From the sequence record OP172790: a DNA stretch of 64,000 nt, one strand, 5' to 3'. Below the pieces are notes generated by a model. That model did not search any database. It saw only the letters and a program-made list of their open reading frames with translations, and was not told the origin of the DNA. Source of the DNA: Escherichia phage ECO319P1. The translations under genes and the position numbers were made by a program. Shown here piece by piece: positions 1 through 38,973 of the stretch (position 1 is the first letter of the stretch; every line of letters starts with the position of its first letter).

Positions 1-301
1 AAAATCCCGCCTCTGTTACAAGGCATCCGCCACGTTGCATAAGTATTCACTTCTCCGCATAGTTGAGTATGAAATATTCCGTATGATTTAACATTCTTTT
101 GACCTTTTCTTTTCAGTGTAAGCAATTGATTTGTATGGGATAACATCTCACACGTTAATCATAGTGTTAATTCTATGTTAAATTCGTGTGGTTTATGTGG
201 GTTGATATGTTATTGAATTGTATAGAATCCTTATGAATCAATAGGTTAGCGATAGGGCAATCAAGCTCGCATCAATTAAAGTGAACGGGTATCATTATTC
301 C

Positions 302-490
302 TGTGGATAAGTTAAGGATTAATGAGAAGTTATCCACAATCTGAAGAAATCCACCTTCCCGAAATCCCTGTGGATAACTCACTAACTATCTGTTTTATAT
401 AATCTTTTATCACTGAAATAAGTTATACATTTAACGAAAAAGTTAAGCTAGACGTAGACCTGTGGATAACTAACGTTTCAATGTGGATAA
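302..490. promoter_or_regulatory. cluster of five perfect DnaA boxes with adjacent AT-rich tract; candidate origin or DnaA-binding control region
   Basis: TGTGGATAA at 302-310, 369-377, 461-469, 482-490 and TTATCCACA at 330-338; AT-rich stretch about 380-440; no ORF. Confidence 0.6.
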
Positions 491-683
491 GATGAAAGTT
501 ATACATGAGATAATGATTGACAAGTGATAGGAATGTATGTTAATCAAAGACTTATTCATATTATCAAGATAAGACAAGGTGATAAAAGTCTATATAAATC
601 AATAAGTTATAGAATGAATACACTTTATGACTAACTAAAATCCTTTATAAATCAGTGAGTTAGTAAATAGTTTAAAATACTTG

Positions 684-1045: not shown

Positions 1046-1153
1046 ATGGTTACTTACAGCAATGAATTAACGTCTAAACAGATGTTAAAATCAGCCAACA
1101 AATTTTGGTTGATTGTAGGGTTGACAGTCGCCGCATTGATTGTTATCCTGTAA
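1046..1153 (+). CDS. small hydrophobic peptide (35 aa), hypothetical
   Basis: ATG 1046, stop 1151-1153, predicted TM segment FWLIVGLTVAALIVIL; not in ORF track (under 60 aa). Confidence 0.25.
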   Translation: MVTYSNELTSKQMLKSANKFWLIVGLTVAALIVIL

Positions 1154-10110: not shown

Positions 10111-10317
10111 ATGAAATATATGTTATTGATTCTTATAGCTTTTAATTGTTATGGGTATCAAACTGACGAAACTGATATGCTGTTCAGTGCTGAGGATTAT
10201 GCACAAGAGCGTCATGTTCAGCGAGTTAAGCCTCACAAAGAAGACAAGAAAGTTATTGTTGTAACTCAAGAGGAACTCGACCGAGTCCTCAAATCAACCA
10301 AAGAAGGAAGTAAATAA
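10111..10317 (+). CDS. small secreted or membrane protein
   Basis: start at ATG 10111 after GGAGGT RBS; N-terminal hydrophobic segment. Confidence 0.45.
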   Translation: MKYMLLILIAFNCYGYQTDETDMLFSAEDYAQERHVQRVKPHKEDKKVIVVTQEELDRVLKSTKEGSK

Positions 10318-27054: not shown

Positions 27055-28854
27055 ATGTCAAAAGTATACGGAGCTAAACGGATTATCGGTGACTCACCTT
27101 GCCCAACTTGTACAGCGGCAGGTCGTGACAGAACCGGTAATCACTTGCAACACTGGATTAACGATGATACAGGCGAAGAGTGGGTTTATTGCGGACGTGA
27201 TGGTTACTATGAAAAGGTAACTGATGCAAACCGTGCTGACCTTGAATCTGTTCGTCATGTTCATCGTGAATTAACTGATGAAGAACGTGCAGCGGTTCTC
27301 GCTGAGGTTGACGAGTTGCCAATTCAGGAACTCACATCTCGTGGTATCCGAAAGGAAATCGCTGAACGTTATGGTGTTCGTGTTGGCCTGTCCAGCACTA
27401 ACCGTGAACAAATCTCTCACTTCTATCCGAAAGAGAAAGATGGTGAGGTGGTCGCTTATAAAGTTCGTAGTCTTGAGCCGAAGTATTTCTATGCGGTTGG
27501 TTCAGGTAGCGGATGTGATTTCTTTGGCATGTCTCAGGCTCGTCTGGGTGATGTGTACAGTGGCAAACTGTTCGTATTCGAAGATGAACTGAGTGCAATG
27601 TCAGGTTTCCAAGCTCTCATTGACGCATCCAAGTCAACTTACAAACCAGCATGTGTGGCTTTGCCAGATGGTGCAGGTTCGGCAGCAAGTGCATTTGCAC
27701 GTTGTCGTCAGTTTGTTGAGTCATTCCAAGATATCGTGGTCTGTATGGATAACGATGAAGCGGGTGATGATGCAGTTAACAAGCTGAGAGCGATGTATCC
27801 AAACATCAAGATTGCTCGTATTCCGAAGGGTATCTACGGTGACGGTAAGCATATCAAAGACGCCAATGACATGATTATGGCTAAGCGTTCTTTGGAGTTA
27901 AACAACTGCTTACGCTTCAATGCTGCAAAAGAATCTCCAGCAGGTTCAACAACTGTAGCGGAATGTATTGAAGATGCGCTGAAGAAACCTGAATGGGGTC
28001 TGAGTTATCCGTGGAAAGGTCTTACTGACTTAACCTTTGGTTTACGTTATGGTGAGGTGATTGCAATTGGTGGTGGTGTAGGTGGTGGTAAAACATTACT
28101 GGCACACGAACTGAGTGCTCACTTAATCAACGTTCACAAAGAGAAAGTTGGTGCATTCATGTTGGAAGAAACTGTAGGTAATACCATCAAGAACATTGCT
28201 GGTAAATCTGCAAATATTCCATTCCATCGTCCAGATGCTGAGTTCGACCCAGAACTGCTGAAAAGCGAAGCACTGAAATACGATGGTCACTTGTTCCTGT
28301 ATCGTAACTTCGGTCAAAACGATTGGGAAGATATCAAACGTTGTATGCGTTTCTGGGTTGTTGAACATGGTGTCAAGTTCATCTTCCTCGATAACATCAC
28401 AGCATTGGTATCACACTTGACAGCAACTGAGATTAACACTGAAGTTGCGAAGATTGCTGTTGAGTTGGCAGGTATGTGTAACGAGTTGGACTTCACTTGT
28501 TTTGTATTTAGCCACTTGAACCCACCGAAAGGTGGTGCTCCTCACGAGGAAGGTGGTCAAGTACAAGAGGTGCAGTTCACGGGTTCCCGTGCTCTGATGC
28601 GTTTCTCTCAGTTAATTCTGGGCTTTGAACGCAACAAGCAGGCAGATGGTGATGCTCGTAACCTTTCTCAGATTCGTCTGTTGAAAGACCGTAACTTCGG
28701 GCAGACAGGTCTTGTACCAACATCTTATAATCCAGTGACAGGCCGCTTAACACAGCGTCGTGATGAAGATTATGACCCGAAAAATCCGTTCCGCTTACCG
28801 GGTGAGCATGAGGACGACATGCAGGAAGATAATGGAAAGGATAAACCATTTTGA
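27055..28854 (+). CDS. bifunctional primase-helicase (T7 gp4-like)
   Basis: N-terminal Zn-binding Cys cluster, Toprim acidic motifs (FEDE, MDNDEAGDD), Walker A GGGVGGGKT. Confidence 0.85.
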   Translation: MSKVYGAKRIIGDSPCPTCTAAGRDRTGNHLQHWINDDTGEEWVYCGRDGYYEKVTDANRADLESVRHVHRELTDEERAAVLAEVDELPIQELTSRGIRKEIAERYGVRVGLSSTNREQISHFYPKEKDGEVVAYKVRSLEPKYFYAVGSGSGCDFFGMSQARLGDVYSGKLFVFEDELSAMSGFQALIDASKSTYKPACVALPDGAGSAASAFARCRQFVESFQDIVVCMDNDEAGDDAVNKLRAMYPNIKIARIPKGIYGDGKHIKDANDMIMAKRSLELNNCLRFNAAKESPAGSTTVAECIEDALKKPEWGLSYPWKGLTDLTFGLRYGEVIAIGGGVGGGKTLLAHELSAHLINVHKEKVGAFMLEETVGNTIKNIAGKSANIPFHRPDAEFDPELLKSEALKYDGHLFLYRNFGQNDWEDIKRCMRFWVVEHGVKFIFLDNITALVSHLTATEINTEVAKIAVELAGMCNELDFTCFVFSHLNPPKGGAPHEEGGQVQEVQFTGSRALMRFSQLILGFERNKQADGDARNLSQIRLLKDRNFGQTGLVPTSYNPVTGRLTQRRDEDYDPKNPFRLPGEHEDDMQEDNGKDKPF

Positions 28855-29345
28855 TTAAACTTGCAGCCACGGATATTGAAACGAATGGATTGTACTTTGA
28901 TGTAAATCTATTTCACTGTGCATGGATTGTGGAGCCATTAACCGGAAAACGGTTTGGCTTCCGTCCAGACCAACTTAAAGAATACGTTGAGAAGTTAATG
29001 ACTTATGACATTCTCATTGGTCACAACGTAATCGACTATGACTTCCCAACTATTAAGAAACTTTGTCCGGGATTTGAATGTCCGGCTGTTTTTGATACGT
29101 TGGTTCTTAGTCGTATGTTGGAACCAGACAGACCACAAGGTCACTCGTTGAAATCTTGGGGTGTAGCTCTTGGTTTGCTGAAAGGTGATTATGGTGAACA
29201 GGAAGATGCGTGGGACGTATTCACAGAGGACATGTATGTTTACTGTGAACGAGACGTTGACGTAACGGTTCTGCTCTATAAACACCTGTGTGAAAAGGCC
29301 GGTTTTGACTGGCAAAATCCACCATCAAATACTTTCAAATTCTGA
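28851..29345 (+). CDS. 3'-5' exonuclease domain of T7-type DNA polymerase, encoded as a separate gene
   Basis: Exo I DIETNGL, Exo II HNVIDYDF, Exo III YCERDVD; close to my recollection of T7 gp5 N-terminus; TTG start overlapping upstream stop. Confidence 0.75.
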   Translation: MIKLAATDIETNGLYFDVNLFHCAWIVEPLTGKRFGFRPDQLKEYVEKLMTYDILIGHNVIDYDFPTIKKLCPGFECPAVFDTLVLSRMLEPDRPQGHSLKSWGVALGLLKGDYGEQEDAWDVFTEDMYVYCERDVDVTVLLYKHLCEKAGFDWQNPPSNTFKF

Positions 29346-37137: not shown

Positions 37138-38973
37138 ATGGAAATCACATCAAGCTGGGACAAACCGTTCCAACTCGAACAGAAAGTGGCTCACATTATT
37201 AGCCAACAAGCAAAGCATGGATGCGACTTCAATAGTCGTAATGCTCATTGGTATGTTCATCTGTTAACTGAACGTATCATCAACATTGATTTGCAGTTGG
37301 TTCCAACTCTGCCACCTATGATGCACAAAGGCACTGAATACAAGGCTCCGTTCAAGATGAATGGTAAGCCGAAGGTGTTTGTCCAGAAGTATATGGACGC
37401 TCAAGGTCTGACAGAGGATATGGTAGGTGGCCCGTTTACAGCGGTGTGGTTTACCCCGTTCGACCCAAGTAAAACTTCACGTCTAAAAGATGTGATGTTG
37501 GACATGGGGTGGATGCCTACTGAATGGAACCAGAAGAAGATGCCGTTTCAACTTTGGACGTATAAAAAGCGTCTGGAGAAGACGACCTTCCGCAAGTTCA
37601 TGGAAGAGCAGACAAGTACCGACGAACGTGAACTATTTCTTCCCTTAGTTAATGGTTTTGTTGCTCAACATTTTGTTGGGAAATCAAAAGGTTACATGAA
37701 AGCAATCCTCAGTGCTCTGGGGTTTGATTTAAAGCGTGTACCGAATTTTGACCAGATTAAGAAGCGTCTTTTGTTGAGTCAGTTCTGGCCGACTTCTCCA
37801 AAAATCACTGAAGATTCATTTGAGTCAGTAAGTGAGGAAGAAGGTCATTCACTGAAACTCCTGAAAGAGCGTATGGTGTGGTCGCACCGTCGTTCACTGA
37901 TTCAGGGTTTGATTGAACTGACTCGTCAGGATGGTAAAATCTCTGGTGAAGCTAACCCATGTGCAACTCCGACAGCACGTATGAGACACAAGGGTATTGT
38001 AAACATTCCAGCCGCAGGTGCTCCTTTCGGTGAAGAGTGTCGCTCATTGTTCCGTGGTAATAAACGTACTGGAACAAAAGCAAAGATTATTCATAAACTT
38101 ACTGCACAGATGGTTGAATCTGGTAAGTTTCGTCGTAAACCGTTCACTAATATCATGCAGGTTTCAAATGGTAAAGGTGGATGGGAAGACGAAGGTCATG
38201 TATCATTCCTGATTCCAGCGGGGCAAGATGCTTTCGTTGGTGGTGATGGTGCAGGTCTTGAACTTCGAATGTTGACTCACTACCTGATTGCAGTATCCAA
38301 AATGCTTCTGAAAGACGCTGAGGAAGCGGGTAATGATAAGTTAATCCGTTACTACGGTGCCGCTTTACAGTCAGCATATGAGTATCGTGAGGTTCTTCTG
38401 AATGGTGATATTCACAGTCACAACCAGAAGCTCGCAGGTCTGCCAACTCGTAAGTCAGCTAAGACGTTTATCTACGCATTCTTATATGGTGCTGGTGATG
38501 CGAACTTGGGTGGTCAACTTGGTGCAGGCCGTGAAGAGGGTGCAGCTTTACGTGCTCGATTCTTGAAAGAATGTCCTTGTATTCCAGTTCTGATTGAGTG
38601 GGTTCAGGATTTTGCCAAGAAGAATGGTTGGGTTCCGGCAATTGATGGTCGTAAACTTATCATGCGTCGTGACCCTTTCAGTGGCGAAGTTATGGCTCAC
38701 AAAGCACTGAATACAATGTTACAAGCAGCAGGTTCAATCGTGATGAAATATGCAGGTTGTTATCTGACTTCTTGGAATGCTCGTGATTGCTTAGATGCAC
38801 ATCAGGTTATCATGATGCACGATGAATATCAGTTCACTTGCAAATGGGAAGATGTTGAAGCTTTACGTCGTAACATTGACTCGTGTGTTAAGAAAGCTGG
38901 TGAATATTTGAAAATGGAATGTCCATTAGCGTCTGACTCAATGTTAGGTGCAAACTGGCTTCATACCCACTAA
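37138..38973 (+). CDS. family A DNA polymerase, polymerase domain only (T7 gp5-like)
   Basis: motif A DGAGLELRM, motif B KTFIYAFLYGAG, motif C HDEYQF. Confidence 0.85.
   Translation: MEITSSWDKPFQLEQKVAHIISQQAKHGCDFNSRNAHWYVHLLTERIINIDLQLVPTLPPMMHKGTEYKAPFKMNGKPKVFVQKYMDAQGLTEDMVGGPFTAVWFTPFDPSKTSRLKDVMLDMGWMPTEWNQKKMPFQLWTYKKRLEKTTFRKFMEEQTSTDERELFLPLVNGFVAQHFVGKSKGYMKAILSALGFDLKRVPNFDQIKKRLLLSQFWPTSPKITEDSFESVSEEEGHSLKLLKERMVWSHRRSLIQGLIELTRQDGKISGEANPCATPTARMRHKGIVNIPAAGAPFGEECRSLFRGNKRTGTKAKIIHKLTAQMVESGKFRRKPFTNIMQVSNGKGGWEDEGHVSFLIPAGQDAFVGGDGAGLELRMLTHYLIAVSKMLLKDAEEAGNDKLIRYYGAALQSAYEYREVLLNGDIHSHNQKLAGLPTRKSAKTFIYAFLYGAGDANLGGQLGAGREEGAALRARFLKECPCIPVLIEWVQDFAKKNGWVPAIDGRKLIMRRDPFSGEVMAHKALNTMLQAAGSIVMKYAGCYLTSWNARDCLDAHQVIMMHDEYQFTCKWEDVEALRRNIDSCVKKAGEYLKMECPLASDSMLGANWLHTH

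Follow-up and report, generated by a model that had tools for sequence, protein, structure and literature searches.

The binding of DnaA to perfect boxes of the R1/R4 type is well established, and clusters of such boxes are known from several different settings. Besides the Escherichia coli origin oriC, these include oriR of P1 and the origins of iteron plasmids such as pSC101 and RK2, in which DnaA boxes flank an AT-rich region and are accompanied by Rep iterons. The datA element is non-coding and combines five DnaA boxes with an IHF site; its activity needs IHF between boxes 2 and 3 and a fixed spacing (PMC4585315). For phage lambda, according to the reference list of PMC3985674, DnaA stimulates the transcription that activates the origin. 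In 25 T5-like phages, eight DnaA boxes lie in the non-coding first-step-transfer (FST) region, paired at a distance of 3 bp within the inverted repeats IRC and IRD and with about half of them variant, and Davison has proposed that membrane-bound DnaA stops injection (bioRxiv 10.1101/866236). Here, we describe a cluster of five perfect DnaA boxes in a 64,000-nucleotide stretch of Escherichia phage ECO319P1 (sequence record OP172790), which we call the window. The cluster belongs to a module of about 300 bp (positions 193-496). On the evidence of its sequence and conservation, we tentatively read this module as serving DnaA-assisted origin opening for the first round of phage replication, probably together with IHF, and we give this reading a probability of about 0.4.

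Judged by its sequence, the phage is a virulent podovirus of the family Grimontviridae, genus Crifsvirus. Its closest relatives are Cronobacter phage A24 (about 92% identity) and vB_CsaP_GAP52 (about 90%, hereafter GAP52); its kinship to Salmonella phage 7-11 is distant, and that to phiEco32 more distant still. The cluster sits within a long divergent non-coding region of Crifsvirus genomes. Exact copies of the 9-mer TTATCCACA number five, all of them within the 189 bp from 302 to 490, and there is no further exact copy in the 64 kb. Dinucleotide shuffles of the whole window contained 0.71 copies on average and never as many as five (0/100), while local shuffles of positions 100-700 contained a mean of 0.008 copies, with five or more in none of 1000. 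Relaxing the consensus to TTWTNCACA added only two scattered sites in the window, at 10197 and 25754. The start-to-start spacings of boxes 1 to 5 are 28, 39, 92 and 21 bp, the last of which corresponds to two helical turns. Together with its flanks, box 3 is identical over 13 nt to the E. coli boxes R1 (left flank) and R4 (right flank).

These results bear out what a preliminary description, made from the letters of the DNA alone, had reported, namely five perfect boxes, four in one orientation and one inverted, beside an AT-rich tract in a non-coding region. The count is far above that of the shuffles, four boxes lie on the minus strand and only box 2 on the plus strand, and the AT-rich neighbour is present, with the two least stable duplexes of the window close by. 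As for coding potential, no open reading frame (ORF) above 36 amino acids overlaps the module, and an Rfam search of positions 1-2000 gave no match.

The conservation of the module was counted in an alignment of three close genomes, namely the window, A24 and GAP52, which are the only ones existing. An IMG/VR protein search with the first early protein found no relative, and a search for homologues of gp001 gained only 7-11-like phages, none of which has the cluster. A24 and GAP52 carry exact copies of all five boxes in unchanged order, orientation and spacing. Not one of the 45 box columns is variable, compared with 18 of the 61 columns in the spacers between boxes 1-2, 2-3 and 4-5 (Fisher p = 2.7e-5). 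The AT-rich core, which fills the interval between boxes 3 and 4, varies at 2 of its 83 columns (core against spacers, Fisher p = 3e-6). For all non-coding DNA in 1-1770, the proportion is 31%. Since box and core columns vary far less than those of the spacers, both the boxes and the core are under purifying selection, and it is the sequence of the core, beyond its composition, that is conserved.

The core also stands out in the stability of its duplex. The GC content is 22-31% across 351-700 (22-36% in 100-bp windows across 200-700), and the two least stable 40-bp duplexes of the 64 kb are found at 581-620 (-39.1 kcal/mol) and 395-434 (-39.2 kcal/mol), against a window mean of -52.7 kcal/mol with a standard deviation of 3.4. 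The latter falls inside the box cluster, between boxes 3 and 4, and the former begins 91 bp to the right of box 5. Within the core are two tandem T-rich repeats that resemble the 13-mers of oriC, matching the E. coli 13-mers M and R at 10/13 and 9/13 positions; both contain ATCTNTTNT, at 388 and 402. As read from its sequence, E. coli oriC runs GATCTGTTCTATT-gt-GATCTCTTATTAG-13 bp-TGTGGATAA, and the core repeats are placed towards the TGTGGATAA boxes 4 and 5 as the 13-mers M and R are towards R1, in strand as well as in side. With the repeats on this oriC-like strand and side, boxes 4 and 5 point at the core as R1 points at the unwinding element of oriC.

Two further observations concern the same DNA. 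A 31-nt inverted repeat, 81% complementary, joins 383-413 in the AT core with 579-609 in the least stable stretch after the early promoter P1; it brackets boxes 4 and 5 and P1, and its right arm is not conserved in GAP52. We also considered a sigma-70 promoter within the core and rejected it: the TATAAT at 398-403 comes without a usable -35 hexamer, and the promoter scan lists none there.

The module has the nature of a cassette. When the window, A24, GAP52 and 7-11 are aligned with MAFFT, 7-11 shows homology on both flanks, and the roughly 300 bp corresponding to window 193-496 are missing there, a stretch that holds the IHF-like site at 236-248, the five boxes and the AT core. The left flank common to 7-11 contains CTTTTCAGTGT, GTATGGGATAAC and GTTAATCA. 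On the right, the P1 homologue TAGACA-N18-TAGTCA is followed by GTCAAAGACTTATTCATA and the TATAAATCAATGAGTTA repeats, and within the first 1,100 bp, similarity to 7-11-type phages is detectable only in the segment at about 516-675. By parsimony, the Crifsvirus lineage would have acquired the module just upstream of a promoter that is ancestral. Because P1 and its leader are common to 7-11, in which the boxes are missing, the DnaA module is best seen as a Crifsvirus-specific add-on to an ancestral origin made up of a promoter and AT-rich DNA, and not as the whole origin.

Searches for a source of the module were negative. BLAST found no homologue in plasmids, and the exact core 21-mer is absent from IMG/VR and metagenome contigs. 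Scans for the geometry of the boxes returned at least 120 loci from metagenome contigs and at least 120 from genome contigs (bacterial genomes and metagenome-assembled genomes). When the module was compared by BLAST with 364 loci fetched for their DnaA-box arrays, only the boxes themselves matched, and neither a donor nor a relative emerged. In the 7-11 record, at about 934-963 (2532-2561 of locus L004), two one-mismatch boxes, CTATCCACA and TTATCCATA, lie 21 bp apart, some 470 bp to the left of the counterpart of window 516-675. Their spacing equals that of boxes 4 and 5, and their orientation is opposite. This pair is probably due to chance, since the other 7-11-like loci lack it and keep only TTATCCATA.

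To the right of the module lie three tandem promoters of the sigma-70 type, P1, P2 and P3, all of them rightward. The -35 hexamer of P1 starts 26 bp beyond the end of box 5 and about 20 bp downstream of the end of the indel, and the conserved TTATACATG is placed between box 5 and the hexamer. The hexamer is invariant and the P1 spacer variable at 10 of 17 columns, which is a typical promoter footprint; the consensus scan did not list P1 on account of its atypical -10 element. An upstream element, ATGAGATAATGATTGAC (repeat family D6), is common to P1 and P2. With P1 followed by AT-rich DNA devoid of ORFs at 524-686, and with a T7-type primase-helicase and a family A polymerase encoded, the layout of a T7-style origin is present. 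Two phage-type promoters were tried and rejected: the late consensus of 7-11, GTAATG-N16-ACTA, taken as a phage-sigma promoter, has no match in the module, and the reverse complement of AAGTTATACAT resembles the phiEco32 promoter TAATGTATA, but this motif is not enriched (11 against 17.8 expected).

Sites matching the IHF consensus WATCAANNNNTTR are concentrated in the same region. There are four in 100-700 against 0.13 expected, a number reached in none of 1000 shuffles, and the site at 236-248 is the only one that is exactly conserved in all three Crifsvirus genomes. Over the whole window, 6 of the 12 matches fall in the first 1.63 kb (119-131, 236-248, 542-554, 597-609, 1219-1231 and 1616-1628). 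A family of 27-nt direct repeats at 222-248, 583-609 and 636-662 is associated with IHF-consensus sites, and three copies are found in 7-11 as well (L004 2941, 3076 and 3129). These sequences point to an ancestral array of putative IHF-type sites in the P1 leader.

The preliminary description had further stated that the phage has its own primase-helicase and no obvious initiator, and both parts are upheld. The replication enzymes are of the T7 type (Table 1), and the A24 annotation also lists a 5'-3' exonuclease and a DNA ligase. A phmmer search with E. coli DnaA against all 706 six-frame ORFs found no homologue (best E-value 0.35), and PHROG scans of 20 hypothetical early ORFs detected no initiator-like family. 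In all, no initiator family turned up in the 30 ORFs scanned or among the annotated genes of A24 and 7-11; many ORFs carry no assignment, and an unrecognised initiator may be among them. No rep gene adjoins the module, as no ORF long enough overlaps it.

Table 1. Features of the module and of the replication and early regions of the window (positions in nucleotides; +, rightward strand; -, leftward strand;., no strand)
Feature	Position	Strand	Remarks
Genus-specific DnaA-box module	193-496	.	Indel relative to Salmonella phage 7-11; MAFFT alignment
IHF-consensus site AATCAATAGGTTA	236-248	+	Exact match to WATCAANNNNTTR; 53 bp left of box 1
DnaA box 1 (TTATCCACA)	302-310	-	Exact match; invariant in 3 genomes
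DnaA box 2 (TTATCCACA)	330-338	+	Sole inverted box; exact match; invariant in 3 genomes
DnaA box 3, with flanks CCCTGTGGATAACTC	369-377	-	Exact match; invariant in 3 genomes
AT-rich core, candidate unwinding element	378-460	.	Conserved; includes 395-434
Two tandem T-rich 13-mer-like repeats	387-413	+	TATCTGTTTTATA (387-399), AATCTTTTATCAC (401-413)
Possible weak DnaA box TTATACATT	423-431	+	Two mismatches to consensus; inside repeat AAGTTATACAT
DnaA box 4	461-469	-	Exact match; invariant; points at AT core
DnaA box 5	482-490	-	Exact match; invariant; 21 bp from box 4
Second possible weak DnaA box TTATACATG	499-507	+	Two mismatches to consensus; repeat copy
Early promoter P1	517-546	+	-35 TTGACA 517-522, extended -10 TGnTAATCA about 538-546; read from sequence
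AT-rich ORF-less leader downstream of P1	524-686	+	IHF-like repeats; holds least stable 40-mer 581-620
Leader IHF-consensus sites	542-554, 597-609		Match to WATCAANNNNTTR
Early promoter P2	765-793	+	TTGACT-17-AATACT
Early promoter P3	929-958	+	TTGACA-18-TAGAAT; 11/12 matches
T7 gp4-type primase-helicase	27055-28854	+	Pfam Helic-prim_T7_N, Toprim_2, DnaB_C
Separate 3'-5' exonuclease part of split family A DNA polymerase	28851-29345	+	Pfam DNA_pol_A_exo1
Family A DNA polymerase	37138-38973	+	Pfam DNA_pol_A

The reading that we favour brings together the conserved boxes and core, the easy melting of the core, its 13-mer-like polarity, the cassette nature of the module and a T7-type replisome without a recognisable initiator. 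Also in its favour are the conserved IHF-consensus site beside the cluster with the local concentration of such sites, the place of the module immediately before P1 and its leader, the unstable DNA near the box arrays of other phage contigs (see below) and the precedent of lambda ori. Host DnaA would be recruited to the main control region of the phage and occupy the five R1/R4-grade boxes, as follows from its established specificity, and from there we infer a course of opening, helicase loading and an effect on replication. Boxes 4 and 5, on the same helical face, would point at the core, with boxes 1-3 beyond it, so that the two sets of boxes would bracket and destabilise the core while IHF bends the DNA nearby. 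Transcription from P1 into the AT-rich leader might then supply negative supercoiling or an RNA primer, by analogy with the T7 primary origin and lambda ori. Finally, the T7 gp4-type primase-helicase would load itself on the exposed strand, and the family A polymerase would take over.

The likeness to a DnaA-dependent origin that the preliminary description had proposed is therefore only partly sustained, as a number of points weigh against it. The complete 7-11 genome has three scattered exact boxes without a cluster, and neither the five 7-11-like IMG/VR loci nor the two phiEco32 ends contain one. Since 7-11 and phiEco32 share the replisome and lack the module, this replisome does not require DnaA boxes. 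Several features of oriC are missing. A scan for phased low-affinity DnaA sites (spaced about 11 bp, up to two mismatches) found only isolated sites. The only conserved weak sites are the two copies of TTATACAT[T/G], with two mismatches each; they belong to the conserved 11-nt repeat AAGTTATACAT, of which 420-430 and 496-506 are exact copies. Between boxes 4 and 5, the 12-bp spacer is variable at 5 of 12 columns, which weighs against a low-affinity array there. To the left of box 4, triplets read at spacers of 10-14 bp agree with the DnaA-trio consensus at two of five positions at most, and no trio array adjoins any box. There is no match to WATCAANNNNTTR between 302 and 490, the nearest being 236-248 and 542-554. 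GATC is wholly absent from the 64 kb (0 against about 243 expected), and with it the clusters that serve Dam and SeqA; in favour of an origin, one placed here could not be sequestered by SeqA. The 13-mer resemblance of the core repeats is a post hoc observation: ATCTNTTNT is not enriched across the window (15 copies on both strands against 12.8 expected), and the repeats are 47 bp away from box 4, whereas the gap in oriC is 13 bp. GC skew is of no use for placing an origin here, because the early genes are on one strand and the late genes on the other. Lastly, the DnaA-box cluster of T5, the sole one described in a virulent phage, lies far from the mapped origins and has been argued not to be an origin (bioRxiv 10.1101/866236). 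Our confidence is limited accordingly by a sister genus that replicates without boxes, by the missing oriC features and by the position of the T5 cluster.

The lack of GATC extends beyond the window. A24 has none in 45 kb, the end pieces of GAP52 have none in 6.9 kb, and 7-11 has one in 89.9 kb, whereas the density at the phiEco32 ends is normal. This is a family-wide avoidance of the site of Dam, MboI, DpnI, DpnII, SeqA and MutH. Within the window, CTAG (38 against 243) and CGCG (47 against 156) are depleted as well.

Some of the same observations can be read as a means of acting on the host; titration of DnaA, like the regulation of early promoters, had been named as an alternative in the preliminary description. 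All five boxes are of the top-affinity consensus, with no graded weak sites, which fits a DnaA sink better than a classical oriC. A sink, or a datA- or DARS-like element aimed at the host, would change the amount or the nucleotide state of free DnaA as phage copies accumulate, and would block or deregulate initiation at host oriC or affect DnaA-controlled genes such as nrdAB. The accessory character of the module, found in one genus only, is usual for host-takeover functions, its place in an early control region recalls the FST boxes of T5, and other phage contigs carry arrays of up to 11 perfect boxes. datA likewise has five boxes and an IHF site (PMC4585315), and an IHF-like site flanks the phage cluster. 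However, the IHF site between two essential boxes that defines datA is absent, and a sink leaves the strict conservation and extreme instability of the 83-bp AT core unexplained. An E. coli cell has of the order of a thousand DnaA molecules and some 300 boxes in its chromosome. Titration by the five sites of one infecting genome would therefore become relevant only late in infection, and we regard a sink as unlikely. The closeness of box 5, TTATACATG and the end of the indel to the -35 hexamer suggests instead a control region of P1, where DnaA, perhaps with IHF, would activate or repress the promoter and so tie the first early transcript to host DnaA or growth state. DnaA is an established transcription factor, which by the source cited above stimulates lambda pR (PMC3985674), and because P1 is ancestral, being present without boxes in 7-11, the module looks like an added upstream regulatory region. 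Yet five consensus boxes over about 190 bp, reaching to about -250, far exceed what is seen at known DnaA-regulated promoters, and the strong promoters P2 and P3 downstream would transcribe the early genes regardless, which leaves regulation of P1 improbable. Since about 150 bp of AT-rich DNA without ORFs come first in the P1 transcript, the role of P1 may itself be replication-related, which would fold this alternative into origin opening.

A structural role like that proposed for T5 would have DnaA, which is largely membrane-associated, anchor, pause or protect the end of the genome during entry or packaging. The parallel with the eight conserved boxes in the first-step-transfer region of the 25 T5-like phages (bioRxiv 10.1101/866236) is the main argument for it, and the boxes lie beside rightward early promoters, where the leading end would be if entry depended on transcription as in T7. 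On the other hand, the records do not fix the Crifsvirus termini, given the assembly overlap of A24 and the lack of a terminal repeat in GAP52 and 7-11; the T5 boxes have a different geometry, in pairs 3 bp apart inside inverted repeats; the T5 model is itself only a proposal; and relatives without boxes infect normally. We consider such a role very unlikely. Least credible of all is a functionless remnant of a captured bacterial or plasmid origin, an idea invited by the discrete indel and by the 13-nt identity of box 3 and its flanks to R1 (left) and R4 (right). In that case, boxes and core should not be conserved while the neighbouring spacers vary at about 30% of columns, and no similar sequence was found in plasmids, in viral or metagenome contigs, or among the box-geometry loci from bacterial genome contigs. 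DnaA-assisted origin opening stays our preferred reading of the module.

The wider setting of the module holds some features of its own. The late genes (gp001, tRNAs and terminase) run leftward, past window position 1, and the early genes rightward, with the first long ORF starting at 1776. A scan of 1-1800 found no iterons of three or more copies within the module, where the only repeats are the boxes and the two copies of AAGTTATACAT, and no short inverted repeats except the boxes themselves. To the left of the module, the block 140-192 (GTATGGGATAACATCTCACACGTTAATCATAGTGTTAATTCTATGTTAAATTCGTGTGG) is nearly invariant in the three Crifsvirus genomes, with 2 of 53 columns variable. It contains three GTTAA(T/A) repeats at intervals of about 11-12 bp, enclosed by CACACG and CGTGTG as an inverted pair, and its parts GTATGGGATAAC and GTTAATCA are kept in 7-11. 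This block could be a phage-protein site or a packaging signal. Downstream of P3, a small ORF at 1046-1153 (+) encodes 35 amino acids (MVTYSNELTSKQMLKSANKFWLIVGLTVAALIVIL) with a hydrophobic C-terminal half; it is near-invariant in A24 and GAP52, and unannotated in both. Its predicted product is probably a small early membrane peptide.

The ends of the related records fall in the same part of the genome. In the GenBank record of A24 (MW343794), the two ends overlap exactly over 127 bp, so that boxes 4 and 5 occur twice; the overlap stems from the assembler, as a k-mer artefact of a circular assembly, and is no terminal repeat. In the records of GAP52 and 7-11, the genome is opened at one and the same homologous place, which corresponds to about window position 1006 and falls within a palindromic stretch of 19 nt (window about 1003-1032). 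Neither of these two records has a terminal repeat, while the phiEco32 record has one of 193 bp.

Dense arrays of DnaA boxes are also found in other phages. At least 120 IMG/VR contigs have two perfect boxes at a distance of 9-15 bp, and among the matches listed, 24 contigs hold 5-11 perfect boxes within 250 bp. The arrays are often spaced at 11 or 21-22 bp; examples from the IMG/VR loci (L014-L133) are L109 1467-1703, L132 545-719, L104 434-588, L096 1714-1906 and L040 61-174. The clusters are non-coding, and the neighbours sampled are phage genes, such as those for the terminase large subunit, GP88 and M15 peptidase. In 23 phage contigs with at least five perfect boxes, the least stable 40-mer of the whole locus lies within 150 bp of the cluster in 6 cases, against 1.3 expected, and the local stability minimum is in the top 1% in 17. 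One recurrent group has its cluster between divergent genes, flanked by GP88 and, on the opposite side, by an AT-hook protein with M15 peptidase. In MW202796, a GenBank relative of this group, the divergent region parts the terminase side from an early side that carries GP88, a DNA polymerase and a DnaB-like helicase, which is topologically the position of the Crifsvirus module. The cluster is absent from the GenBank relatives MW202796 and Acinetobacter phage AM24, which suggests that the clusters of the recurrent group are a cassette subject to gain and loss.

We found no paper describing DnaA boxes in phages of the phiEco32, 7-11 or GAP52 type, and, in the papers examined, no description of an origin for this group. 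Nor did our literature search find a general treatment of arrays in virulent phages, beside the T5 preprint of Davison and an Ori-Finder figure for one Pseudomonas phage. It is conceivable, although we rate it as rather doubtful, that dense arrays of perfect boxes form a widespread class of cis-elements, as yet undescribed as a class, in virulent and uncultivated phages, with the Crifsvirus module, the T5 FST region and many IMG/VR contigs (5-11 boxes per 250 bp) as examples, and that phages lacking an initiator use them to hijack host DnaA through a portable cassette, gained or lost by a genome, that mimics oriC or a DnaA sponge that also cripples initiation in the host. The question behind this is how replication starts in virulent phages that have a T7-type replisome and neither a phage RNA polymerase nor an initiator. 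The natural plus/minus pair of Crifsvirus and 7-11, the sharp bounds of the module and its conservation make it a clean system in which to test for recruitment of the host initiator by a lytic phage, and the T5 boxes, long without an explanation, are directly concerned as well. If the module is an initiator-free origin or a DnaA sponge, phage replication or host shut-off would be linked to host DnaA and growth state, and the many dense arrays in uncultivated phage contigs could be explained as well.

Compared with the known systems, the module shares with an E. coli-type oriC the perfect R1/R4-type TTATCCACA boxes with R1/R4-like flanks, an unstable AT-rich element on the side faced by the two nearest boxes, two tandem T-rich 13-mer-like repeats on the equivalent strand and a nearby IHF-consensus site. 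It differs in having no low-affinity arrays for ATP-DnaA, DnaA-trios or GATC, in the wider gap between repeats and box (47 bp instead of 13 bp), in its boxes on both sides of the AT core, in an IHF-like site outside the cluster, and in belonging to a virulent phage with its own T7-type helicase-primase. With P1 oriR, it has in common five consensus boxes split around an AT-rich region (3 + 2 in the phage, 2 + 3 in P1) and an element length of about 200-300 bp, but the phage module has no iterons (three or more copies), adjacent rep gene, recognisable initiator or GATC heptamers.

The T5 iss/FST region likewise combines a cluster of consensus boxes, conserved among relatives, with a long non-coding region at the early end, and it too belongs to a virulent enterobacterial phage with its own replisome; in both phages, the function of the cluster is a proposal. 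In contrast to T5, Crifsvirus has five single perfect boxes at spacings of 21-92 bp, placed around an AT core and found in one genus. As in datA and in DARS1 and DARS2, the boxes are conserved while the spacers drift, and datA also has five boxes and an IHF site, whereas the phage cluster has no IHF consensus between any two boxes. The strong promoter P1, followed by an AT-rich stretch without ORFs, recalls the T7 primary origin and lambda ori, and the T7-type primase-helicase and family A polymerase recall T7 in particular. Unlike T7, the phage uses host sigma-70 promoters and not promoters of a phage RNA polymerase; unlike lambda, it has no initiator of the O/P type, and its DnaA sites are upstream of the promoter. 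Taken together, the module is a variant of the DnaA-box elements known from oriC, plasmid origins, datA and the T5 iss, carried by a virulent phage in which no initiator is recognisable and the replisome is of the T7 type.

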